Shown here in pieces: positions 1 to 10,714 of a stretch of DNA of 11,886 bases. The notes beneath the pieces are model-generated. The model had not been told where the DNA came from. It worked only from the letters and a program-made list of their open reading frames with translations, and did no database searches. Positions within the stretch are counted from its first letter, which is position 1. Every line of letters starts with the position of its first letter. Source of the DNA: a virus. The stretch lies in the UHGV virus genome UHGV-0180981; one strand, given 5' to 3'. The translations under genes were made by a program, and so were the position numbers.

Positions 1-76
1 GCGAAATCGGTAGACGCAGTTGATTCAAAATCAACCGTAGAAATACGTGCCGGTTCGAGTCCGGCCTTCGGCACCA
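1..76 (+). tRNA. leuX: tRNA-Leu (anticodon CAA), 3' portion; the first ~9 nt of the gene lie upstream of the window
   Basis: Sequence matches the recognised leuX tRNA from D-arm onward: anticodon loop with CAA at 26-28, long variable arm, T-arm GGTTCGAGTCC, acceptor 3' end GGCACCA ending at 76. Confidence 0.9.
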
Positions 77-77
77 A
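46..77 (+). repeat. Left copy of 32-bp direct repeat (tRNA 3' end; attL-like core)
   Basis: CGTGCCGGTTCGAGTCCGGCCTTCGGCACCAA is repeated exactly at 10288-10319; flanks diverge immediately outside the repeat. Confidence 0.8.
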
Positions 78-556
78 GTCACTAAATTCCTTACAATACA
101 GCTGGTTAGACGATTAAATCTGTCTCTTTTGCCTGTAAGAAATGCTCTGTTATGTCCCTTGAAAAAGCCGCTGTGGTTGATAGTGGTAATTGGGATGTTA
201 ACTCATAGCGGCGTGTCGTTCCAGGCGTCAAACACGTACTGACTCAACTTGAAAGCTATGACGTAGCCACCGTCTCTAAACAATCCCAAAAACTTTTAGT
301 GAAGCGCATTTTAGCCCGATGCCCCCGTTCTGTCGCCGTCGCGAGACGCCGCAGGGGATAAACAGGTTTATGGTGGTCACGGTACTTGCAGACCATATGC
401 AAGCTCTGCCAGCGGTTCGGCCTCGCTCCCCTTGGGTACATGGTCATCCTGATAAGCCTCACTAACTGACATAACCCTGATGAAGTCGCCAGAGGCTCCG
501 CTTGTTGTCTTACCACCAACGGGGCTTTATGGATTCTATTGCGGTATGTTTGAAAG

Positions 557-580
557 CGCGCGGGGGTTCATTCCCGCGCG
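557..580 (-). terminator. GC-rich hairpin 10 bp downstream of the 304-aa ORF stop (weak U-tract)
   Basis: CGCGCGGG (557-564) pairs with CCCGCGCG (573-580) around an 8-nt loop; on the minus strand only about 3 U follow, so intrinsic termination is uncertain. Confidence 0.35.
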
Positions 581-589
581 TCCGGCGCT

Positions 590-1504
590 TTATGGTAAGT
601 ATTTAAGTATTTCTGCTGCCCAGTTTACACGGTGGATGACACGGGCATGGTGCAAGTTTCCGTCTAGTATTTCGGCTTTAGTTAGCTGGGATAACTGCTG
701 CCAATTATTGTTAAGTATATAAGTTGCGTTATTACATTGTGAGCTTTCTAGCACGTAAATGTTTTGGCCTGTGAACCCAAATATCACGTAGCCTTGGAAC
801 CCAGCTTGCCCAACCGCTACGAAATCTGGTTTTTTACTATTGATAAGTTCAAGTCTGCCTTCAACAACAGCGGTATTGCCCTTTCCCCTGATCTTAATAG
901 CTGAAAGGATTTTTGAACCGATAGTACTCCAAGGCTGTTGACCCTGAGGCAGGAGGCTCCAGTTTAGTTTTATAGATTTACTTTTAACGATGGTATTAAG
1001 TTGGTCGTCAACAGTTTCGCACAACCCAAAAAGCTCTAAAAAAAGATTAATGCAGTGAGCCACTAACTCTTTGTTGTTAGCTGTCAAACTTAGCTTTGGA
1101 GAGATGATCAACTTCTCCCCTTGCAGATTCTCTACAATCTTTAACTCTATGCTTGGTGGAGGGGTGAGGATTCTCTTGTAGCGCTTATACTCAATTTCAC
1201 GAGTGTCAGTAACTTCTTGAGTTGCGCCCCCTCCGATCCATTGCTTTCTAGTCCATGAAATTTGTCTGTATGCAGTTTCTTTAGGTGCTGTTTTGTCAGG
1301 TACTGATTTGCCATTAGCATTGAATCTGGTTATTGGCCCTAAAATTTTGGGGAGGACTTCTTCACCTAAAGCTCTTTGACTTGAGAAACCAATAGAGTCC
1401 GTTTTCCCCGCATCTGGCAAAGAATGTGCAATGTAGATATCACGGCCATCAAAGTTAGGTATGTAATTATCAATATTTCGAATACGCTTTTTCTGAATAA
1501 GCAT
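590..1504 (-). CDS. Hypothetical protein, 304 aa, no recognisable family; AT-rich foreign-looking cargo gene
   Basis: Longest ORF in the AT-rich arm; ATG start with AGGAA about 8 nt upstream on the minus strand; hairpin follows the stop; no motifs recognised by eye. Confidence 0.6.
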   Translation of the reverse strand: MLIQKKRIRNIDNYIPNFDGRDIYIAHSLPDAGKTDSIGFSSQRALGEEVLPKILGPITRFNANGKSVPDKTAPKETAYRQISWTRKQWIGGGATQEVTDTREIEYKRYKRILTPPPSIELKIVENLQGEKLIISPKLSLTANNKELVAHCINLFLELFGLCETVDDQLNTIVKSKSIKLNWSLLPQGQQPWSTIGSKILSAIKIRGKGNTAVVEGRLELINSKKPDFVAVGQAGFQGYVIFGFTGQNIYVLESSQCNNATYILNNNWQQLSQLTKAEILDGNLHHARVIHRVNWAAEILKYLP

Positions 1505-1636
1505 GGATCGTTCCTTTTGATTTTATCTTACTGTTTACATAACCAACCAAGCCGGGCACAATCGAGCCGTTAGAAACGATAGTGAGGCTAACAATCGTTA
1601 TGAGTTTGCAGACTCATGGCGGTCATGCTTCATAGA

Positions 1637-1667
1637 CCGGATTCACGCAGGTGACTCCGGTTTTTTT
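1637..1667 (+). terminator. Rho-independent terminator (plus strand)
   Basis: CCGGA-T-TCAC / GTGA-C-TCCGG stem with 4-nt loop, followed by a run of 7 T (1661-1667). Confidence 0.55.
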
Positions 1668-2338
1668 ATGCCCATCATTTATACATGGGCACAACATATA
1701 GGGTGTGTTAATAAGATTACCCCCTACATGTTCAGCATTCTAGTTAGGATTCTTTGCAGTACAAGGGTTGATTTTGAGGTTAAATTGAGGTTGTCAAAGG
1801 GAAATTTCGACCAACCCTACGTGCCGTAAGGCTTAGGCTGTATGTCAATGTTTCAGAAAAAAAAATGAAAATTTGATCGAGTGCTGATTTCTTTAGCACG
1901 AGAACATGAGAACGAACCAAAATATTGCAAAGTTTTGAACAAAACTTGAACTGCCTCGTGTCTCCATAGCCAAGACGAATGCAGTTTAAATAAGCTAAGT
2001 CAGCTCTCAAAAGTCCTTTATGACCCGAACCAAAAAATGTACCTCTTAAACCCCACCGCAAGCGGCTCTCCGGGGTTTGTGCGCGTGGAGTAATGCGGTT
2101 GTACTGGGTATGTGCGCACAACCCTCTACAAGCCGCATTCTACCGTTAGCCTATAGCTGAATCCCCGGCTTGAAAAATTGTACGCTTATGGTTGCCCCTC
2201 CCTCAACTGTATAGCTCGCCCGCGCCCCCGTGCGCATGTGCGTGCCCGCGCGTCAGGGGTCGCTGAGAAAACCCTAAGATTTTGCTCATCCGAGACAACC
2301 GTTGCAGGCGCGTGTTGCCGAGGGCACACTGCTAGTGT

Positions 2339-2448
2339 TTGATGGTGTCATCAATCGTTCGATTTTTGCTACCTTCCTGAGTGATTACTATCTGGTGTCA
2401 TCAATTTAGGGTTTGACTAAATGCTACCACCAATGCAATGATGCTACC
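2339..2448. promoter_or_regulatory. Repeat cluster upstream of serine recombinase gene (candidate res/operator sites)
   Basis: TGGTGTCATCAAT exact direct repeat at 2343-2355 and 2393-2405; first copy sits in inverted repeat TTGATG-gtgt-CATCAA (2339-2354); TGCTACC three times (2367-2373, 2422-2428, 2442-2448). Confidence 0.4.
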
Positions 2449-2479
2449 GTTTTGTGATACCAGACGGGTGAGGTGAACC

Positions 2480-3055
2480 ATGAGGACTTTTATCTATTGC
2501 CGCGTTTCAACACGCGAGCAGGATACGCAGAATCAGGTGCTGGCTATTGAGCGTGCCGGGTATAAGGTGCCGGAGAGCAGGGTAATCAGTGAGGACATTT
2601 CCGGTAGCGTTCAGGCTATGCAGCGCCCTAAGTTTCGGGCGATGGTTGAGCATAAGCTGGAAGCGGGAGATCAGCTTGTCGTGCTGAAACTGGACAGGCT
2701 GGGGCGCGACAACATCGACGTGCAACAGACCATCGACATGCTGTTAGAACGTGGCGTGAAGGTGGTGTCTCTTGACCTGCCTGCGCGTGATCTGACTTCA
2801 TCTGAGGGCAAGCTAATCCGCCAGATGTTTGGAGCCTTTGCTGAGTTCGAGCGAAACCGTATCCGTGAGAGGACGCTTGACGGGCTGGAGAAGGCGAAAG
2901 CCAATGGCGTTAAGCTGGGACGCAAGGAAGCCACCGACACCACTCAAAAGGTGCAGGAGCTGCGGAGTGAGGGGCTGTCTCAATCGAAGGTAGCGAAGCG
3001 TCTCGGAGTTAGTGTGAGCACCGTTAAACGCCACTGGAACAAGGGCGAGGGGTGA
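2480..3055 (+). CDS. Small serine recombinase (resolvase/invertase family), 191 aa
   Basis: N-terminal YCRVSTREQ catalytic-serine motif, LKLDRLGRD motif, C-terminal HTH (SQSKVAKRLGVSVSTVKRH); GAGGTG RBS about 8 nt upstream of ATG. Confidence 0.92.
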   Translation: MRTFIYCRVSTREQDTQNQVLAIERAGYKVPESRVISEDISGSVQAMQRPKFRAMVEHKLEAGDQLVVLKLDRLGRDNIDVQQTIDMLLERGVKVVSLDLPARDLTSSEGKLIRQMFGAFAEFERNRIRERTLDGLEKAKANGVKLGRKEATDTTQKVQELRSEGLSQSKVAKRLGVSVSTVKRHWNKGEG

Positions 3056-3994
3056 TGACCTACAAGCGAACGAGGTGCTACGACTGGCCGTTACTGGGCT
3101 GTGGGTGATGGATTACCTACAGCTTTTGTATTTATTTCAGAGGGTTATGTTATGCTTAATATCATAACGATATGATTTATAATGTATTTTCGTGTTACTT
3201 GCGGCTCTTGATGTGAAGAGGTGGCGGGGCTTTAGCCGTGCCAGACGATGAACATCGAGATCAGATTGTGAATGTGATTTATCACTGAACAATTCAAGGG
3301 ATGGGGCAGGGGAAGGGATCAAAGGCTGCGTTGTCCAATCACTAAGCTAGATTTGAAGCTGGTGAACACGTTACTAGTATCTTTAAAGTTGCATTTAAAA
3401 TGCATGTACAAAAAAGGGTTCTTCCCTTACATCCCTTCTCCTAAATGTAGTTACGAGTGCTTCGCTCTCTTCACTTGCTGCGCTTCTCGCTATGCTCCAG
3501 CCCGCTCCATCGCCTTTGGCTCATTCCCGGTCTTCGCCCGCTGCTGATGCTCGGCCACTCTACGCAACCGTGCTTGCCGTGGCAGGCAACGCGGCGGGAA
3601 GGTGTAGTGGTACGGTACTATGTATCGGTATTATTAATGTATTCAATCACATACTGTTATCAGTAGGTATCCTTCAAAACATCTTCATCCATTTCTGTAT
3701 CATTCAATCATCTTTCTTGTTCGTTTCCTTTCAGGTCTTAGCCGTTGTTCATTGGTCTTACTGCCTGCTGTGCTACTGCCAGCTATGGCACGCCGTTACG
3801 GTCTACTGTGTCACCTGTCCTACTGCGTTCACTGTCTGCCGTCTGTCATCCTGTCGGATTCCATCCGTCATCCGTTCCGCGCTCGCTTGTTTCGGCTGCG
3901 CCGCGCTCGCTCTGCGTATCTAGCGATACTCTATCACTATAGACACTTTCATAATTATCTAATGATTACAGTAACTTATATTTTTAATTTTAAA

Positions 3995-4255
3995 GGCTAC
4001 TAATAAGGAGATATAGAGCATTACTTTCCCGCTTTTGACCGACAAAAATCGCGTTGTTAAGTATTGCCAGCCCAGGCCCAGTAAGGCTTAGCGAGGTGGT
4101 GGTTAAAAATTGACCTAATGAAAGTATCTACTAAGGAGAAAGAATAACTCCCGAAGCGAGACAAACTCTCCGATTTTGAAAGTGACTATTAAGGCAGATA
4201 AAGACACTGACACTGTTGCCGACATGAAAACCTCTATAAGGGCAGAGAGTCTGCC
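3995..4255 (+). repeat. Four degenerate direct repeats (iteron/operator-like), core CTAnTAAGG(n)AGA
   Basis: Copies at 3995-4019, 4124-4150, 4182-4209, 4231-4255, all in the same orientation in non-coding DNA upstream of the helicase-led array. Confidence 0.5.
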
Positions 4256-4316
4256 GCACCTGTACCACCGCCCCAACCTGAGCTAATACCTACCCCTATT
4301 TTCTGGAGATTTCACC

Positions 4317-6161
4317 ATGCCAACAAACCTACGCCGCCTGCTTGCGCAGGCTGCCGACGCTGACCCGCTCAATACTGCGGACGCAGATGTACAGCAAATG
4401 ATCGCTGACGGGACTGTTATTCGACGTTCCAAGATATGCCCCGTAAAGCGTAAACCCGTTAAGGCGGCATACAACACAAAGACCGAAGAGTTTTATTACA
4501 ATGCTGATGGTTCCGCTATGACCCTGCGGGAGTGGCGAACGCTGCACGGTGTTCAACCGAAGAAGCAAAAACAGCGCTCTGACGCTGGGTTGCGGCAAGT
4601 CATCCAGCCCGGCGACGCGATTCACTGTCGACGCGCTGAGATTGAGCAATGGCTAAATAAAAAGCCTGCTCGTTATGTTGAACCACTGCCGCCAGATTTC
4701 CCCGGCGTTCGCGTAGACGAGGCTGCATTGAAACCGCGCGAGCACGCCGTGCCGGAATCAACAACCGGACAGAATGCTTTTCTCAAAGCCTGCCGCGAGT
4801 TTCTGATTTGCGACGAGAAGACCATGCGCCGCATTAACAGGGGCATGAATAAACTGGAAGCGATGCGCAATACAGATTTCAAACGCTACGGGAACTCAGC
4901 GGAGTTTCGTCAATTGTGGTGTGGAGAGTCGAAACCTACCGAGGATAAATTTAACAGTACAAATCATCATTGTGACCCGAACGGCTTGGCTGCATCGCCG
5001 TCTATGCCGTCACTGAATACTGTGCCGTATGAGTTCCGTCCGCTGGTTCGCTGTGACCGAAACGCACGCGTCAGCCTGCTGCCACCCGATGGGCTGGAGT
5101 GGAGGCCGGGACAGTTGTCTGTTGCTGATGCGATCTTTACCCGTGGTAGGGATGTGCTTGCCGTACTGCCGACCGGGTATGGCAAAAGCGCCGCCTTCAC
5201 TTATCCACTGATTTATGAGTCCCGCGCTGGCATTGGCCTGTCTGTAATCGTGGTTCCTACTAATACCCTTAAGCGTCAGATTCTCCGCCAGTTGCGGGAG
5301 GCTGGCATTCACGCCGTGGCCTTTGGCGATAAGCTACCGAGGCACCGCAACGCACAACAACTGGCGGGACTAGCAGCCGGGGCGTTCCGGCTTGCTGTTG
5401 TTTCGCCTGAACATCTGGTTCCGTCGAGTCAGGTTCTCGCGGCGCTGATGGCTTATGGCGTTGATCGTTTTATTATCGATGAGGCACACACGGTCAAAGA
5501 CTGGGATTTCCGCCCAGCTTACGACGCAATGCAGCACACACTACAGAATGCTTTTCCCTCGGCTCAACGTTGCGTGTTTACGGCTACTCTACTACGTGAA
5601 AATGAGCGCGGTTTAATGGAGGCGCTGGGGTGCCGTGGCAATTACGTCACATTCCGTGCTGATGTTGCTCGCGAGCATATCCAGTTGATTCCGGTCAGGC
5701 AGTGCCGCGAACGTTTCCGAGCGGCTATTGGTCTGGTCGAGGCTCTGCCGAAAGAAGAGAAGACGCTTATTCTCGTCAATGACCTTAAAACGTTGCGGGC
5801 GTACCTGAAACTCTTGGGCGACCGGGCGCGGCCATATCACTCGAAGACGATGCACCTGAGCAACGAGGAACGCCACGCAAACGCTGAGTGGTTTGCCTCT
5901 ACGCCGGGCGCGATTCTTATTGCTACTAAAGCCTTCGGGCTGGGTGCTGATGTTCCTGATATCCGTAACGTTGTCGTGACATACGTCCCCGATGATTTGC
6001 CTGATCTCGTTCAGATGATTGGACGAGCCGGGCGCGATGGGGAACCTGCCCGCGCTTTTCTGCTGTGGTCATCGCTGGCGCTGGATGTTGCGCCTGATGA
6101 GCTTGCTTACTTCTACCGCCCTGAAAACTGCAACTGGCAGTACATCGCTAAATACCTCTGA
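4317..6161 (+). CDS. RecQ-like superfamily 2 DEAH helicase with uncharacterised ~270-aa N-terminal domain, 614 aa
   Basis: Motif I LPTGYGKS, Ia VIVVPTNTL, II IIDEAHTV with DWDFRPAY, III FTATL, VI GRAGRDG; ends about 45 aa after motif VI, so no RQC/HRDC; GGAG RBS. Confidence 0.9.
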   Translation: MPTNLRRLLAQAADADPLNTADADVQQMIADGTVIRRSKICPVKRKPVKAAYNTKTEEFYYNADGSAMTLREWRTLHGVQPKKQKQRSDAGLRQVIQPGDAIHCRRAEIEQWLNKKPARYVEPLPPDFPGVRVDEAALKPREHAVPESTTGQNAFLKACREFLICDEKTMRRINRGMNKLEAMRNTDFKRYGNSAEFRQLWCGESKPTEDKFNSTNHHCDPNGLAASPSMPSLNTVPYEFRPLVRCDRNARVSLLPPDGLEWRPGQLSVADAIFTRGRDVLAVLPTGYGKSAAFTYPLIYESRAGIGLSVIVVPTNTLKRQILRQLREAGIHAVAFGDKLPRHRNAQQLAGLAAGAFRLAVVSPEHLVPSSQVLAALMAYGVDRFIIDEAHTVKDWDFRPAYDAMQHTLQNAFPSAQRCVFTATLLRENERGLMEALGCRGNYVTFRADVAREHIQLIPVRQCRERFRAAIGLVEALPKEEKTLILVNDLKTLRAYLKLLGDRARPYHSKTMHLSNEERHANAEWFASTPGAILIATKAFGLGADVPDIRNVVVTYVPDDLPDLVQMIGRAGRDGEPARAFLLWSSLALDVAPDELAYFYRPENCNWQYIAKYL

Positions 6162-6198
6162 GTCGAAAGGCTCTCCCTGATTCTCTGGAGTTAATCAT

Positions 6199-6636
6199 AT
6201 GCCTGTTACCGAACATGCGCAGCGTCGTGCTGCGCGTGCGGATGCGCTCATCACCGCACAACTAGCCTTCGCCCTGAATGGGTACAACTGGGATGAACTG
6301 GCCGAACCTCATCGCAAGACCCTTAATCGTGAGGCCATCATTCGCGAGGTATCTACACCGCTGGAGCGATATTGCCTGCTGAATGATTGCGAGCCGTGGG
6401 AGTGTCTGGCCGCTGTACTGAACCGCATGAAAAGGCCGGATGGCTCGCGTCGCTGGAAAGCCGTCCGTTTGTCCGACCGGGTTTTCAATGGCCGAGTGCA
6501 TCCAGTGCGCAAAACGCCTGATGAAGTTTACGCCGCCATTGCCCGCCGCTTGTTCCTGCCGAAGCCCGTGCATCAAGAAGTGATACAGCACATCCGTGCG
6601 CTTGGCTTGTTACCAATTGGAGACAACCACCAATGA
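6199..6636 (+). CDS. Hypothetical protein, 145 aa
   Basis: GGAG RBS 9 nt upstream; 37 bp after helicase stop; stop overlaps next start (ATGA). Confidence 0.6.
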   Translation: MPVTEHAQRRAARADALITAQLAFALNGYNWDELAEPHRKTLNREAIIREVSTPLERYCLLNDCEPWECLAAVLNRMKRPDGSRRWKAVRLSDRVFNGRVHPVRKTPDEVYAAIARRLFLPKPVHQEVIQHIRALGLLPIGDNHQ

Positions 6637-6842
6637 CGAAATCTGAATTTGAAAATGAAACATGGCGAATGAAGGGCTTGCTTCTTGGGGCGCTGATTCG
6701 CCGCCTTGAGGAAGATAAGGCTGGCGAGTCGCGCATGGTCGCAGCGGAGTTATCCAGTGCGGTCAACTTCCTTAAGGCCAACGCCGTAGAAGCGCCGGAC
6801 ACATCATTCAACAACGTGTTCCCGGAGGATGACGAGCAATGA
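6633..6842 (+). CDS. Hypothetical small protein, 69 aa
   Basis: ATGA overlap with upstream and downstream genes; GGAGA RBS. Confidence 0.55.
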   Translation: MTKSEFENETWRMKGLLLGALIRRLEEDKAGESRMVAAELSSAVNFLKANAVEAPDTSFNNVFPEDDEQ

Positions 6843-7015
6843 CCCCTGAACAATTCAGACAATGGTTCGCCACGCTGCCACCGAACTATCAGAGCACCGC
6901 ACGCACCATGTACGACAACGCCCGCAAGTCGGGCACACATACCGCGTCAAGCCTTGCGCTGATTCACACGTTGGTTACTGACCAGATCAAATTTGATTCG
7001 GAGTTTAATTTATGA
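6839..7015 (+). CDS. Hypothetical small protein, 58 aa (below the ORF-track length cutoff)
   Basis: Translated by hand: ATG at 6839 overlaps upstream stop (ATGA), stop at 7013-7015 overlaps next start at 7012 (ATGA); GGAGGA RBS about 9 nt upstream. Confidence 0.45.
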   Translation: MTPEQFRQWFATLPPNYQSTARTMYDNARKSGTHTASSLALIHTLVTDQIKFDSEFNL

Positions 7016-7575
7016 CTTTGAGTATTACCGATATCCAGCGCATTAACGCGCTGGCTCATAAGCACCTAAAGAACAATGAAGAGATTGCAGCGGAGACAGG
7101 TCATACCCTGACCGATATTGATGCTGTAATCCGTGGCGTCTATGTCGATGACTTGGCCGAACATTGGAAAGACGATGCTGATATTACTCTGGCGGAGTAC
7201 AACGCCATCCGCAGCCGCTATAAGCCCGGCAAGCTGCACCGCGATACAGAGTTTATGATTGCCCGCGATATGCTGATTCGCCCTGAGACTGTGCTGGCTA
7301 TCGCCCATTCCCGCTTTAGCAACGTCCACACTCACCCAGTGCCGAAAGCCGTCAAAGCAAAGCCGGAGAAAGCGAAAGTAGTGCGCAAGTTGGTGCCTAC
7401 TGATTTAGATGAAATTCACAAGTTAGAGCGCTTCGGTTGGCCTGCTGCGGAGATCGCCGGGAAGCTGGGCGTCCCTGTTGAGGTCGTCGCGCATGTGCAA
7501 CGCTGCCTGAGAAATCGTTGGTCGTACCCGGATACTCTGGAGTCTGTTAACTCCAAATTCAGCGAGGCTGAATGA
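7012..7575 (+). CDS. Hypothetical protein with putative HTH motifs, 187 aa
   Basis: GGAG RBS 8 nt upstream; HTH-like segments near N-terminus and in LERFGWPAAEIAGKLGVPVEVV; ATGA overlap at both ends. Confidence 0.6.
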   Translation: MTLSITDIQRINALAHKHLKNNEEIAAETGHTLTDIDAVIRGVYVDDLAEHWKDDADITLAEYNAIRSRYKPGKLHRDTEFMIARDMLIRPETVLAIAHSRFSNVHTHPVPKAVKAKPEKAKVVRKLVPTDLDEIHKLERFGWPAAEIAGKLGVPVEVVAHVQRCLRNRWSYPDTLESVNSKFSEAE

Positions 7576-7808
7576 TGGCAGAGAACGAACCTCTGCACCC
7601 CGCCGTTAACCCTGATCTCTACGTGAACCTTGACGAACAACGTGAAGGATACGCCCCGTTTGAATCACGCGGCTGGGATGTTCTGACAAAGAACCTGTCC
7701 GGGGAAGGGCGAACTGACCCCGGCCAAATGCTTAACCAGAATCCGAAACAACGCCCGCGCGGCTCCGTTGGTGAGCGTCGTTGGCTTCGTAAACGTGGAT
7801 TACTTTAA
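7572..7808 (+). CDS. Hypothetical small protein, 78 aa
   Basis: Start overlaps upstream stop (ATGA); basic C-terminus. Confidence 0.5.
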   Translation: MMAENEPLHPAVNPDLYVNLDEQREGYAPFESRGWDVLTKNLSGEGRTDPGQMLNQNPKQRPRGSVGERRWLRKRGLL

Positions 7809-7820
7809 CGAGGAATTACC

Positions 7821-8060
7821 ATGAGCAAAACTATCGTATTGCTGCCGCCACGCAAGAATACAGACTGGGCTGCGCAATTAAAGCTGATTTCTGAATCGCT
7901 TGAGGTGAGTCAGGCAGACCTCGCCCGCGCCTATCAGGTTGATCGTCGGGATATGGGTAAAGCGTATCACGGTGTGCGCAAACTGCCGGAACGTTGTGTG
8001 CCTGTTCATATGCTGTTGTTAGCGCAGGTACACGACTTTAGAGCATTATCAGGAGAATAA
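7821..8060 (+). CDS. Cro/YdaS-like HTH DNA-binding protein, 79 aa
   Basis: GAGG RBS; HTH followed by LPERC motif (SQADLARAYQV...GVRKLPERCVPV) resembling phage Cro/YdaS-type regulators. Confidence 0.6.
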   Translation: MSKTIVLLPPRKNTDWAAQLKLISESLEVSQADLARAYQVDRRDMGKAYHGVRKLPERCVPVHMLLLAQVHDFRALSGE

Positions 8061-8063
8061 TTT

Positions 8064-8744
8064 ATGTCTGACCAGAATGTTAATCCGTACCTTTCCGGTG
8101 CTGATACTGCATCGCAGCAATCGCCGTACATGGCTGCACCTGTTGGCGCTGACAATGGCGCATCCCGCTTTAGCTCTGCGCCTGCTGATGCTGATTTCCT
8201 CCGTACCCAACCCGTTAACGGTAATGATGGCGGCCAATGGAATAATGGCAGTATCGCGAATCAGCAGGATCAGAACGCTGACAGCGCCGGGGCGCAGGTG
8301 GGCGATACTATCTCCCTGATGGATGGAACAGCTATTGAGTACACCGCCGAGCTGCAAGGATTGATGGGACAGTTTCATCAGTCTGTCGAAAGCCAGCTAG
8401 GGCAAGGGACAGTTGACGCTATGTTGCAGTACGCTGGCACGCTCGATGCCGGGACGCAATCGACCCTTGAACGGATGGTTATGTCTGGCGACCCTGCGCA
8501 GATGCAGCGAGCCGTTCAGTATCTGCAAGAGAGGATGGCTGGCGGTTCCATTACCGGTTACGTCCCGAACGGCCAGACTGCCGCGCAACCTGTCGGAATG
8601 TCACATGCTGAGTTTATAGCAGCGTATGACCAGCTTTCGCAGTGGGCGCAGCAATCAGGGTATGGCCCCGGCCATCGCCAGTACGACGAACAATACCGCG
8701 CTCTGGTTGCGCAGCGCTCCGCTGGCAAACGTGCTGGCCGCTAA
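8064..8744 (+). CDS. Hypothetical protein, 226 aa, low-complexity N-terminal half, helical C-terminal half
   Basis: AGGAGA RBS 8 nt upstream; starts 3 nt after previous stop. Confidence 0.6.
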   Translation: MSDQNVNPYLSGADTASQQSPYMAAPVGADNGASRFSSAPADADFLRTQPVNGNDGGQWNNGSIANQQDQNADSAGAQVGDTISLMDGTAIEYTAELQGLMGQFHQSVESQLGQGTVDAMLQYAGTLDAGTQSTLERMVMSGDPAQMQRAVQYLQERMAGGSITGYVPNGQTAAQPVGMSHAEFIAAYDQLSQWAQQSGYGPGHRQYDEQYRALVAQRSAGKRAGR

Positions 8745-8861
8745 CACCCAACGGTGGAATGCGCCCTGCAAGACTGAGTGCGCACCAACCCGGTACTACC
8801 ACACCAATCTATGCGCATGAGTCCCCGCAAGCCGTATTCTGCGCGGCATCTGAAAGCCTGT

Positions 8862-8887
8862 TTTTAATTAACCGAGGTTCGTAATGA
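8862..8887. promoter_or_regulatory. hix/gix-like 26-bp site with core AACCGAGGTT
   Basis: Core 8870-8879 is the gix crossover-region sequence; each flanking half-site matches the hix half-site consensus at about 8/12; overlaps the ATG at 8884. Confidence 0.25.
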
Positions 8888-9297
8888 GTACCTGTAATTT
8901 CCATGCCGTGGAGCGTGTCGCTGACGTGCGCCCGGATTTCGCCTTGCCGCTGGGTAGATGCGATCACATTTACCCTGAGCGTGTGCAGCACGTTTTCAAT
9001 CCAGACGAGGCGGTTTATATCGTTGCCCGGTCTGCCACATCCGGCACCCGCACATCTGGCGTTAGCCGTGGGCTTTCCCCTGTGCTGCCGCCGAAGATGG
9101 CCGAGCGCATGCGCGAACGTGAACGGCACGAGAAGAATCGAGCCAGACCCCGCAATGTGATCACTGAGGCAGTACGCGCTGACATTATCGAGCGCTCTGC
9201 AAAAGGTCAGAAGAATCGTTACATTGCAAGCAAGGTTGGTGTGTCTGAAACCTCTGTGCGGAAGGTGTTGAACATGGCGCGTATGAGTGCGCACTAA
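8884..9297 (+). CDS. DNA-binding protein with C-terminal Hin/resolvase-type HTH, 137 aa
   Basis: C-terminal RPRNVITEAVRADIIERSAKGQKNRYIASKVGVSETSVRKVL resembles the Hin DNA-binding domain; no catalytic domain; true start may be an internal Met. Confidence 0.55.
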   Translation: MSTCNFHAVERVADVRPDFALPLGRCDHIYPERVQHVFNPDEAVYIVARSATSGTRTSGVSRGLSPVLPPKMAERMRERERHEKNRARPRNVITEAVRADIIERSAKGQKNRYIASKVGVSETSVRKVLNMARMSAH

Positions 9298-9493
9298 TGC
9301 AAGGTAATACGTTCGCCTTACTTCACGCGCATTAACCCCTGAGAACCGCGCCAGCTCTGGCCTCAAAACGCCCATTCGGGGCACCTCATCCCTTTAATCG
9401 ATACCGTTCTGAATCCTGCCTCGGCGGGAGGATTCCGCACGTCTGTGCCATGACGATGGCGCGGGCTTCATCAACCTATGTAGGAGTTTTGTT

Positions 9494-9991
9494 ATGGCTG
9501 ATACTTCGTACAGTCCCGATCTGTTTCGCCCACACTATGGCGGGGTGGAATCCGACAATGATATTCACATCGAGGCTTATGACCGGGACATCCAGACCCG
9601 TTTAGAGTCCAAATCTGTATTTCTGGCCGAGGGGCTGTCTACATACAGGCCGCTGAAAGCCAGCAACCAATATCGTGTTGATCGCCTGAGTGGTGATCTG
9701 GAGGTGAAGGGCAGAGCCGCAGGGCAATCGCTGGAGCATACCGCCGTTAAGTCGGACAAGCTGATTATCTCTGTGGATACGCTGAGCTATCTCCGCATCC
9801 CGATTGACTATCAGGAGGACTGGACAGCACCCACTTTTCGCTCAGAGCTGAGCCGCAATATGGGTACTGCTCACGCTAAATTCTACGACGAAGCGCACAC
9901 CATCCAGCTAATCAAAGCGACTGACTTTGTATCGCCGCCGACACTGCAACCAACGTTTAACCCACTAAGCGAGTCCATTCCAGAGCAATAG
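9494..9991 (+). CDS. Hypothetical protein, 165 aa; possibly an N-terminal fragment of a T7-like major capsid protein
   Basis: AGGAG RBS 8 nt upstream; by-eye resemblance to T7 gp10 N-terminal region (LF...GG, ED...RSExxxxxGxxxA); ORF ends at about half normal capsid length. Confidence 0.55.
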   Translation: MADTSYSPDLFRPHYGGVESDNDIHIEAYDRDIQTRLESKSVFLAEGLSTYRPLKASNQYRVDRLSGDLEVKGRAAGQSLEHTAVKSDKLIISVDTLSYLRIPIDYQEDWTAPTFRSELSRNMGTAHAKFYDEAHTIQLIKATDFVSPPTLQPTFNPLSESIPEQ

Positions 9992-10154
9992 CATCCCGAA
10001 ACAATCGCGCTTGGCGTACATCGCGTGTCCCTGTGCTTTTCATAAAGTAGCGCTTCCCTTGGAACAGGTGGCGCATGTAGTTGGGGATAGCTATCCGCAC
10101 GAGGTAATTCCCGCAGGGATCTAAAACTAGATAACGATCTCTCTTGAAACTCAT
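9957..10154 (-). pseudogene. Tyrosine integrase N-terminal remnant (about 65 codons)
   Basis: YLVRIAIPNYMRHLFQGKRYFMKSTGTRDVRQARLFRDAIALEWTRL fits the integrase N-terminal arm-binding pattern; stops after 65 codons, no catalytic domain; sits about 130 bp inside the right repeat. Confidence 0.35.
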
Positions 10155-10159
10155 ACAAA

Positions 10160-10185
10160 CCCCGGTTATGTTGTCGGGGCTTTTT
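10160..10185 (+). terminator. Rho-independent terminator (plus strand) near right end of island
   Basis: CCCCG (10160-10164) pairs with CGGGG (10175-10179), optionally extended by a G-U pair, followed by 5 T (10181-10185). Confidence 0.5.
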
Positions 10186-10287
10186 CATGGCTAAACAGTC
10201 TGTGAAATGTGCCGGGGTCATGAGCTTTAGTCTAGCTAGTTCAACAAGTTAACGATGATTGTTGAAGCAAGCTAAGTCGCTATAACC

Positions 10288-10319
10288 CGTGCCGGTTCGA
10301 GTCCGGCCTTCGGCACCAA
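10288..10319 (+). repeat. Right copy of 32-bp direct repeat (attR-like; partial tRNA 3' end only)
   Basis: Identical to 46-77; upstream sequence does not match the tRNA body. Confidence 0.8.
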
Positions 10320-10333
10320 AAGATGCAAATCAA

Positions 10334-10357
10334 AGTCGCTTAAGGGCGGCTTTTTTT
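10334..10357 (+). terminator. Rho-independent terminator, probably the native leuX terminator displaced by the insertion
   Basis: AGTCGC/GCGGCT stem (one G-U pair), 6-nt loop, 7 T (10351-10357), immediately after the right repeat; no equivalent follows the tRNA at 77. Confidence 0.6.
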
Positions 10358-10714
10358 GTGTCTGAAATACACGTAAAGTTTTCCTTTCAACGGAAGACAA
10401 TCTGATTCAGCCAATATCAAATTTCTTATAAGTATAGAACAGAATATATTCTCATTCGATAATTGTCATATTTGTGCATAAGCTTTCCGGTGATTTTGAA
10501 AGGTTATTTGTCTTAGCCTGACGCTTTCCGCTTTATCCTGGAAAAGGAATGTCTGCTGTCCCGCATGGTTTAAACATCTCACATCTGCTGTAACGAACCT
10601 CAAACTTTCTCCATCATTGATTAACTTGCTGTGATTTTGGTCATTGCTCGGGAAGCTTCAGAAAGTTAAAGTAAAAATTATGTTCCTAAAATGTATGCGC
10701 AGGCCTGCATAACA

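Follow-up and report, generated by a model that had tools for sequence, protein, structure and literature searches.

P4 and the PICIs are already known to carry an end-forming site of their helper phage, and in PLE, P4 and the PICIs interference and mobilisation are usually found together. To our knowledge, neither cf-PICIs nor PLE copy a T7-type junction or use a promoter for a single-subunit RNA polymerase, and we know of no satellite of T7-like phages. A search of the full-text literature for islands of the kind analysed here, for satellites of Autographiviridae, and for the termini or promoters of Bonnellvirus returned no description of any of these. According to a passage in PMC13236587 that cites Chung & Hinkle (1990), plasmids equipped with a T7 origin, a pac site and a terminal repeat are replicated and packaged by T7.

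The window, which here means the whole stretch of 11,886 nt that was analysed, contains an island integrated at leuX. Positions 1-9968 are 100% identical to positions 3001-12968 of the E. coli KFu019 island (L001), and positions 9966-10375 correspond to L001 18124-18530. A deletion in the window's copy removed the region from the middle of the capsid gene through the integrase; because the sequence from the capsid C-terminus to the integrase is lost, this copy is defective and not itself mobile. The landmarks of the window are:

1-73, plus strand: 3' part of tRNA-Leu (leuX), where the island is integrated (Rfam tRNA, 38.4 bits, 5'-cut; annotated in KFu019 and E2348/69)
2480-3055, plus strand: small serine recombinase (resolvase) gene, present in all islands (Pfam Resolvase, 8.3e-37; HTH_7)
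3989-4246, plus strand: four rightward promoter-like repeats upstream of the helicase gene (at about 3989, 4118, 4176 and 4224; consensus ATGAAAGTnnCTAyTAAGG)
4317-6161, plus strand: DEAD/DEAH-box helicase gene, which opens a rightward operon (Pfam DEAD and Helicase_C; PHROG 16)
9494-9991, plus strand: truncated capsid gene, fused by the deletion to a remnant of the integrase end (from comparison with KFu019)

Intact relatives of the island were found in KFu019, E2348/69, ARS-C101 and others, and also in Kluyvera, Enterobacter, Kosakonia, Trabulsiella and Rosenbergiella. Their order is tRNA-Leu, variable cargo, resolvase, a non-coding region of 1.26-1.46 kb, DEAD-box helicase, small ORFs, capsid protein, HNH, two small ORFs, EndoVII, defence cargo and tyrosine integrase. 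Like satellites, they have an integrase and an attachment site at a tRNA gene, the tyrosine integrase lying at the end opposite to tRNA-Leu. Across the islands the defence cargo includes AbiTii, TIR, R-M, AbiJ and DUF3800 genes. Arrays similar to the rightward repeats are present in all islands, and these repeats may be promoters or iterons. The full-length island capsid protein shares 55.5% identity with the glasur major capsid protein and matches PHROG 267 at 6.7e-67. No portal, scaffold, terminase or tail genes were found when the islands were searched for other virion or packaging genes, and an island lacking portal, terminase and tail genes would need to borrow these functions from a helper. 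Look-ups in IMG/VR, in metagenome contigs and of contigs with exact protein matches revealed no excised, circular or virion-derived island; all copies were chromosomal or uninformative, and the contigs recovered showed chromosomal contexts with the same architecture.

The island resembles P4, with its helper P2, in its integration at a tRNA gene (leuX also in P4), a putative helper end-forming site, putative helper-responsive promoters and its character as a defence hotspot. It differs in that the putative helper is a virulent T7-like podophage with DTR ends and its own RNA polymerase, and in that P4 relies on a size-determining external scaffold whereas the island has a capsid protein of its own; there is no sequence relationship between the two. 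With cf-PICIs the island shares its own capsid protein and an HNH nuclease, but cf-PICIs also encode a portal, a terminase and head-tail connectors, and from that gene set only the capsid, together with HNH, was found in the islands. PLE of Vibrio cholerae, like the reading of the island developed below, parasitises a virulent phage and carries nucleases against it, but PLE lacks a capsid gene and depends on a myovirus as helper.

Between the resolvase and helicase genes lies a segment (3400-3950) that the first-pass annotation, made from the letters of the window, had described as almost free of A on the plus strand. The plus-strand composition of 3400-3950 is A 16.3%, C 30.1%, G 20.5% and T 33.0% (AT skew -0.34), compared with 24.3% A in the whole 11,886-nt window; the depletion is thus real and unusual, but the earlier wording was too strong. 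It is concentrated in two blocks, defined on composition:

3420-3600: A-depleted block I, A 12.7%, C 37%
3600-3660: A-normal spacer between blocks I and II, A 27.9%
3660-3930 (end also listed as 3931): A-depleted block II, A 13.3%

Inside block II the A content falls to 10.8% over 3700-3930 and to 9.4% over 3803-3930. Approximately 150 kb of E. coli DNA, taken in 25-bp steps on both strands, served as background for ranking the 550-bp value, and the segment ranked within the bottom 0.6% by A fraction and the bottom 0.1% by AT skew. Since homologous copies of this region were part of the background, these figures understate how extreme the segment is. The sliding-window calculation proposed earlier therefore gave a composition clearly skewed against background, and the opinion that such skew is unusual for enterobacterial DNA was borne out (lowest 0.1-0.6% of background windows). 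One of the three plus frames that had been called open is open from 3400 to 3921, but the second has stops at 3442, 3448, 3664 and 3739 and the third at 3545, 3605 and 3635.

The short internal repeats reported in the same annotation do recur. CTGTC occurs four times (3815, 3832, 3843 and 3851) versus 1.1 expected, and GTCATCC occurs at 3867-3873 and at 3845-3851, the latter one base away from where it had been placed; CCGCGCTCGCT is found at 3877 and 3901. A tandem repeat scan of the segment gave no tandem array, and scans for inverted and tandem repeats gave nothing pointing to an invertible segment for the resolvase. The idea of primase sites, seen as GTC enrichment, was ruled out, with 11 GTC observed and 11.4 expected.

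The A-poor segment is non-coding, in agreement with the earlier view that it holds no credible gene. A Pfam search of its five plus-strand ORFs gave no match, a 143-codon ORF (3492-3923) loses its frame to stops and to indels of 1-2 nt in homologues of 92-94% identity, and an alignment of 12 islands (alignment A1) has single-base indels within the most conserved part. The segment is conserved as a unit, a point for which BLASTN had been suggested as a check at first pass: of 5426 complete E. coli genomes, 58 have it, with 89-100% identity, and the RefSeq annotation of those 58 genomes has no feature under it.

The right part of the segment is closely related to phage DNA. Window positions 3803-3980 are 89-97% identical to 15 records of Bonnellvirus (phiKMV-like Autographiviridae, related to T7), and the E2348/69 island copy of this stretch reaches 97.7% identity to the phages. 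In the phages the match falls in an unannotated gap that runs from the endolysin gene to the first early gene. The DTR of the type species J8-65 is annotated at 1-259 and 40723-40981, and by homology the DTR of the megetsur group lies at about 2620-2860 of the megetsur record (L002). Window positions 3803-3931 are homologous to the A-depleted tract between DTR and promoter in Bonnellvirus, with 90-98% identity to megetsur, HHU8, glasur, RZ4 and Kc261, which by homology places them just inside the left DTR. A non-coding match of 89-97%, against 55.5% for the capsid protein, is far closer than genome-wide kinship. An origin or a recombination substrate had been among the possibilities raised at first pass, and this is the closest in spirit to the junction mimic proposed below. 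The homology to the Bonnellvirus left-terminal region is not visible from the letters of the window alone. The left end of Bonnellvirus is composed, in order, of:

1: a conserved element ending in CCTCCC
2: the physical left end and the DTR, about 240-260 bp
3: a T7-class-II-like pause motif, TATCTGTCTCTTTT, once per genome
4: an A-depleted tract of approximately 250 bp
5: a 23-bp block resembling a leftward phage-polymerase promoter
6: AT-rich DNA with two copies of TAATGATTACAGTAACTTAT
7: strong sigma-70 early (host) promoters

Of these parts, the island has the final ~125 bp of the A-depleted tract, followed by the 23-bp block and the first of the AT-rich motifs. Two further features of the window belong to this comparison:

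3819-3866: 48-bp core of block II, the only phage-like piece left in two more divergent islands, L010 (Kosakonia) and L013 (Enterobacter)
3960-3979: TAATGATTACAGTAACTTAT motif, which holds the palindrome TTAC-A-GTAA and is common to the phages (two copies there)

Read from the sequence, the pause motif has only loose look-alikes at 3697-3718. In a search for this motif the sole good match (118-130) is in the attL arm, and because this arm is found in 625 genomes the match is not specific.

The skewed composition is itself a property of such phage ends. The A contents of the gene-sense strand were:

J8-65 DTR: A 6.9%
J8-65 tract after the DTR: A 10.5%
megetsur DTR equivalent: A 8.7%
megetsur tract after the DTR: A 6.8%
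phiKMV DTR: A 8.0%
phiKMV, 476 bp after the DTR: A 10.1%

The left-terminal regions of Bonnellvirus and phiKMV thus have 7-10% A with an AT skew of -0.47 to -0.62, and since phiKMV-like left ends are equally A-depleted, the skew of the island is a normal signature of such ends. The left ends of phiKMV and J8-65 are like the island in the strand-specific nature of the A-depletion, which in them covers the DTR and the next 250-400 bp, and Bonnellvirus of the J8-65 type is in addition directly homologous to the island at 3803-3980 and 2165-2262. Unlike these phage ends, the island tract is broken by a gene and by the A-normal spacer, has 13-16% A and lies in a bacterial chromosome.

At the right border of block II is the 23-bp block, which looks like a promoter for the phage RNA polymerase:

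3932-3954, minus strand: phage-RNA-polymerase promoter-like 23-mer, TTATGAAAGTGTCTATAGTGATA, with a predicted start at 3937, reading leftward into the A-poor tract

Exactly two copies of TTATGAAAGTGACTATAGTGATA are present in each phage. The first is on the coding strand, rightward, directly after the RNAP gene (in glasur, RZ4, Kc261 and J8-65), and the second is on the opposite strand, leftward, at the left end of the phage. The spot after the RNAP gene is where a late promoter is expected. Aligned in register with the T7 promoter TAATACGACTCACTATAGGGAGA, the 23-mer is identical at 15 of 23 positions, as read from the sequences. Phage lineages vary at positions -10 to -6 (mostly at -8 to -6), where the two copies of any one phage agree, with GTGA in glasur and RZ4, GCTA in Kc261, GTGT in megetsur and HHU8, and GTAA in J8-65; the islands have one leftward copy each, either GTGT or GCAT, and that of the window is GTGT. 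By its sequence the block thus resembles a T7-group promoter both in its motif, which spans -17 to +6 (some 23 bp) and has TATA-G around the start, and in its covariation with lineage. Because the core is nearly palindromic, we infer the promoter orientation from sequence logic, and the leftward orientation is supported because the J8-65 pair keeps only -17 to -2 in that reading. In L010 and L013 the promoter-like sequence beside the 48-bp core points rightward, so leftward transcription through the tract would not be universal. In T7, too, a leftward promoter (A0, position 224) is annotated beside the left DTR.

A second flank of phage type lies on the other side of the resolvase gene, which thereby sits between two phage-derived flanks:

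2165-2202, plus strand: conserved element CCGGCTTGAAAAATTGTACGCTTATGGTTGCCCCTCCC, homologue of the sequence directly left of the phage DTR (alignment A3)
2202/2203: predicted end-forming cut
2203-2262, plus strand: stretch like the first 50-60 bp of the J8-65 DTR (TCAAC...GCGCCCCCGTGCGCATGTGCGTGCC; alignment A3)

In a BLAST of the whole island, L001 5163-5242 matched megetsur L002 2580-2657. Alignment A3 gave the pattern CCGGCTTGAAAA(A)TTG...CCTCCC/TC(A/G)AC, with CCCCC(G/A)T about 20 bp further on, in all islands and phages examined, and the annotated DTR of J8-65 starts exactly after CCTCCC. The boundary element was found once each in 12 of 12 genome islands, 6 of 7 metagenome contigs, one IMG/VR contig and every phage examined; the seventh metagenome contig is a stored stretch of 1.5 kb that ends short of the element. 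In the islands it is always 2.15-2.7 kb upstream of the helicase, and in the phage collection it was confined to Bonnellvirus records. The homologues of both DTR flanks have the same order and orientation in the island as the flanks in the phage, but they are separated by ~380 bp in the phage versus ~1.5 kb in the island, where the resolvase gene and a conserved non-coding region intervene. Short-word BLAST of the island against the DTR bodies of J8-65 and megetsur gave only chance 9-14-mers, with no similarity for the DTR body or the right boundary, and this comparison did not identify a right-hand cut site in the island. One of the chance matches, TGTATCGGT at 3621-3629, corresponds to a site 4 nt from the J8-65 DTR end, which is suggestive by position but not significant. 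A search for DTR left-end sequence in the island beyond the one site was mostly uninformative.

The conserved non-coding region next to the resolvase gene is of a different kind:

3056-3637: conserved non-coding region of the whole island family, in which conservation drops sharply at ~3632-3637

It is 83-95% identical in the E. coli, Kluyvera, Enterobacter and Kosakonia islands and partial in Rosenbergiella, while Trabulsiella aligns over 3370-3660 (alignment A1). Block I, which with its conserved core at 3476-3632 forms the similarly A-poor end of this region (3420-3637), is alignable in all 12 islands and 88-98% identical among islands with diverged flanks; it is up to 97.9% identical to that of L009, an otherwise divergent island. 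A BLAST search for distant matches among 50,697 phage records, with 3056-3810 and the divergent L008 module as queries, yielded no real hit, so block I and some of the modules have no known phage source. The role of block I is a guess from its composition and position. To the right, 3640-4260 is modular, and different islands match different phages best. A megetsur-, HHU8- or Kc261-like module is present in the E. coli, Kluyvera and E. chuandaensis islands; the Kosakonia and Enterobacter ECC-219 islands have only the 48-bp core, followed by rightward promoter-like sequence, and the remaining islands have unrelated A-poor modules with no match among sequenced phages. Such modularity fits a tracking of different helpers.

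The arrangement is comparable to the T7 junction and the T7 'phagemids', in which DTR-flanking sequence and a phage-polymerase promoter firing toward the repeat are sufficient in cis for replication and packaging of a non-phage replicon by the phage, and to T7 in having a leftward promoter (A0 in T7) beside the left DTR. It is unlike the phagemids in being natural and chromosomal rather than engineered, in belonging with the phiKMV-like Bonnellvirus group, and in that its function is read from sequence. Unlike T7, where phiOR is on the right-end side and rightward, the island promoter is on the left-end side and leftward, and unlike the T7 junction the island has no shared DTR body and has the resolvase gene and a conserved island element inside the junction.

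Given the homology, architecture, promoter signature, phage-like composition and non-coding status observed here, we consider it fairly probable that the A-poor segment acts in cis as the right-hand portion of a structure that mimics the concatemer junction of the helper and is located in a satellite-like leuX island. From the same features we infer transcription, replication priming, cutting, packaging and mobilisation of the island as follows. On infection, the helper RNA polymerase would fire leftward from 3954-3932 through the A-poor tract. With few A's in the template, the transcript would be U-poor, which would make termination poor and the RNA:DNA hybrid strong, and the pairing of this RNA with DNA might serve to prime DNA synthesis or to mark the junction. 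Transcription of the helicase operon would start from the rightward promoter-like repeats, the helper replisome and terminase would take the island as phage DNA with an end formed at ~2203, and the island would be packaged in capsids built with its own capsid protein.

Three other readings of the segment were less well supported than the junction mimic. According to the first, which we regard as unlikely but deserving of attention, the locus is an infection sensor or decoy of a defence island and no transfer takes place. The phage promoter or promoters and the terminal copies would switch on the helicase, the nucleases and the capsid homologue when the Bonnellvirus polymerase appears, or the terminal copies would titrate or misdirect the phage terminase so that the infection is aborted. 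The defence cargo (AbiTii, TIR, R-M, AbiJ and DUF3800) with the HNH and EndoVII nucleases, the promoter-like repeats facing the helicase operon, and the outcome of the IMG/VR, metagenome and assembly look-ups, in which no packaged form was found, are all in keeping with a sensor. A sensor, however, needs a promoter and not a DTR-boundary element 1.7 kb off in fixed order and orientation, and the combination of a tRNA-site integrase with a full-length capsid gene of helper type is typical of mobilisable satellites. Interference and mobilisation also usually coexist in known satellites.

A functional non-coding RNA is rather improbable. The first-pass annotation had suggested a purine-rich RNA from the minus strand, and a U-poor, purine-rich transcript of ~530 nt from 3937 to ~3404 could, for example, regulate the resolvase in antisense, function as a sponge or prime synthesis in trans. 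The leftward promoter-like block at 3954-3932 and the following feature are on the same strand and bracket the segment almost exactly:

3404-3428, minus strand: weak intrinsic-terminator-like hairpin (AAGGGAAGAACCCTT, then a T run) at the left edge of the A-poor segment

The sequence of the hairpin is conserved in 9 of 12 islands, but it has only 5 pairs. Those two elements give the suggestion a concrete basis, but no structured or sequence-conserved RNA was seen: an ARAGORN tRNA scan and an Rfam scan (3000-4400, E up to 1) found nothing in the segment, and the folding and covariation analysis that had been proposed came out negative, with a covariation term of +1.0 and no compensatory pairs in RNAalifold over 12 islands and an unremarkable minus-strand fold z-score of -1.65. 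The right half of the presumed RNA is also exchanged for unrelated sequence in many islands, and the promoter is reversed in L010 and L013.

We think it still less probable that the locus is an inert scar of past recombination between island and phage, surviving by chance with no present function. Exchange between phage and island clearly took place, and the island copy of the window is already decaying. Against a scar, the two-flank layout is maintained in metagenome contigs as well as in 12 islands whose hosts represent six genera (Escherichia, Kluyvera, Enterobacter, Kosakonia, Trabulsiella and Rosenbergiella), the promoter variants follow the phage variants, and block I is 88-98% identical where its flanks have diverged. 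A decayed or unusual protein gene, also raised at first pass, is rejected as highly improbable, for although long stop-free frames exist, some pipelines call the ORF at 3492-3923 and predict its 143-aa product in some assemblies, and 'hypothetical proteins' are predicted over the phage tract, the frames are open because A is scarce, the phage terminal regions show the same skew, and the Pfam, indel and RefSeq results given above all speak against a gene.

With the junction mimic as the preferred reading of the segment, the data suggest that the islands are a so far undescribed satellite that exploits virulent Bonnellvirus phages. A copy of a T7-type junction together with a promoter for a single-subunit polymerase is, as far as can be told, new in a satellite. 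More tentatively, it is possible that virulent phages of the T7-like kind (Autographiviridae) have their first satellites in the leuX islands, which would be natural 'T7 phagemids'. Such islands would sense the helper via promoters for its single-subunit RNA polymerase and replicate from a transcription-primed, R-loop-prone, A-depleted origin; they would then be cut at the copied DTR boundary and packed in small T7-type capsids of their own. The resolvase gene inside the junction mimic would lie within a long terminal repeat, and the resolvase would recircularise the injected linear DNA, as Cre-lox does for P1.

The comparison defines three cis elements that are unannotated in Bonnellvirus records, namely the polymerase promoter, the DTR-boundary element and the pause-like motif, and these are ready parts for transducing particles. 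Strand-specific A-depletion, as a signature that phiKMV-like left-terminal regions share, could help to locate genome ends and to detect more mimics. Among virulent phages the T7-like ones are the textbook case, and they are common candidates for therapy. The island could account for resistance to Bonnellvirus, or for its low yield, on some strains, including EPEC E2348/69, and mobilisation of the islands, if it occurs, could turn strictly lytic podophages into vehicles for the spread of defence systems among the Enterobacteriaceae.

Features of the window discussed here, with coordinates, strand where assigned, and description:
118-130: pause-like motif AATCTGTCTCTTTT, matching the Bonnellvirus motif at 13 of 14 positions (also at 11697 in L008 and 6931 in L010, two related islands)
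590-1504, minus strand: cargo slot flanked by tRNA-Leu and the cut-site element, encoding a 304-aa protein with no Pfam match
2343-2355 and 2393-2405: TGGTGTCATCAAT, present as two identical copies offset by 50 bp, immediately 5' of the resolvase gene
3390-3404: near-perfect palindrome TGCATTTAAAATGCA, bordering the A-poor segment on its left
3989-4246, plus strand: four rightward repeats of ~23 bp each (at ~3989, 4118, 4176 and 4224), consensus ATGAAAGTnnCTAyTAAGG
9494-10375: truncated capsid gene, with 165 codons left, fused to an integrase-end remnant

The Bonnellvirus counterpart of AATCTGTCTCTTTT lies directly to the right of the direct terminal repeat (DTR) in every Bonnellvirus. The motif was kept beside tRNA-Leu in 12 of 12 islands, and the attL arm that holds it was found in 625 of 5426 E. 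coli genomes, many more than have the island of the window. A second copy, present in L008 and in the Kosakonia island L010, is located ~265 bp to the right of the cut-site element, a spacing that is phage-like.

Promoter-like sequences were found in phages and islands alike. The phage polymerase promoter motif was located in four Bonnellvirus genomes at the following sites:
L004, 20845-20867
L005, 19775
L006, 19889
L019, 19629

Each Bonnellvirus seems to carry only two copies of this motif: the first follows the RNA polymerase gene, and the second sits at the left end and points leftward. Neither is annotated in the phage records, several of which have spurious "hypothetical proteins" called over the stop-free, A-depleted terminal tract. 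In the Kosakonia and Enterobacter islands (L010 8668-8740 and L013 8651-8730, plus strand), AATGAAAGCTACTATAT comes immediately after the 48-bp phage-like core and is a promoter-like sequence of the type found in the Bonnellvirus phage Kc261. It points toward the helicase gene, the orientation opposite to that of the copy in the window.

The contents of the cargo slot at 590-1504 and of its equivalents elsewhere differ among islands, with AbiJ-NTD4 in the related island L026, an IS3 element in L008 and other hypothetical proteins in E2348/69, and the slot looks like a second variable hotspot. Compared with the intact relative in E. coli KFu019, the window is missing ~5 kb comprising the capsid C-terminus, HNH, EndoVII, a restriction-modification (R-M) system and the integrase. 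The identical capsid-integrase deletion form, adjoining a type I R-M locus, was seen in several assemblies and metagenomes. Where this flanking locus joins, positions 10326-10404 look like two terminator-type hairpins; their Rfam match to Aggregatibacter sRNA 82 (34.6 bits, below the gathering score of 51.4) is probably not meaningful.

Both copies of TGGTGTCATCAAT are kept in most islands, and the pair could serve as res or operator sites of the resolvase. The TGCATTTAAAATGCA palindrome is likewise kept in most islands, and in L008 it is included in a ~90-bp unit that is tandemly duplicated (12800-12910). The four rightward repeats, which precede the helicase gene, share positions -16 to -9 with the phage promoter, and their start region, CTATTAAGG, is similar to that of T7 class II promoters that initiate with A. 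Repeats of this type number 2-6 in every island. The repeats could be helper-polymerase promoters of varied specificity, or else origin iterons.
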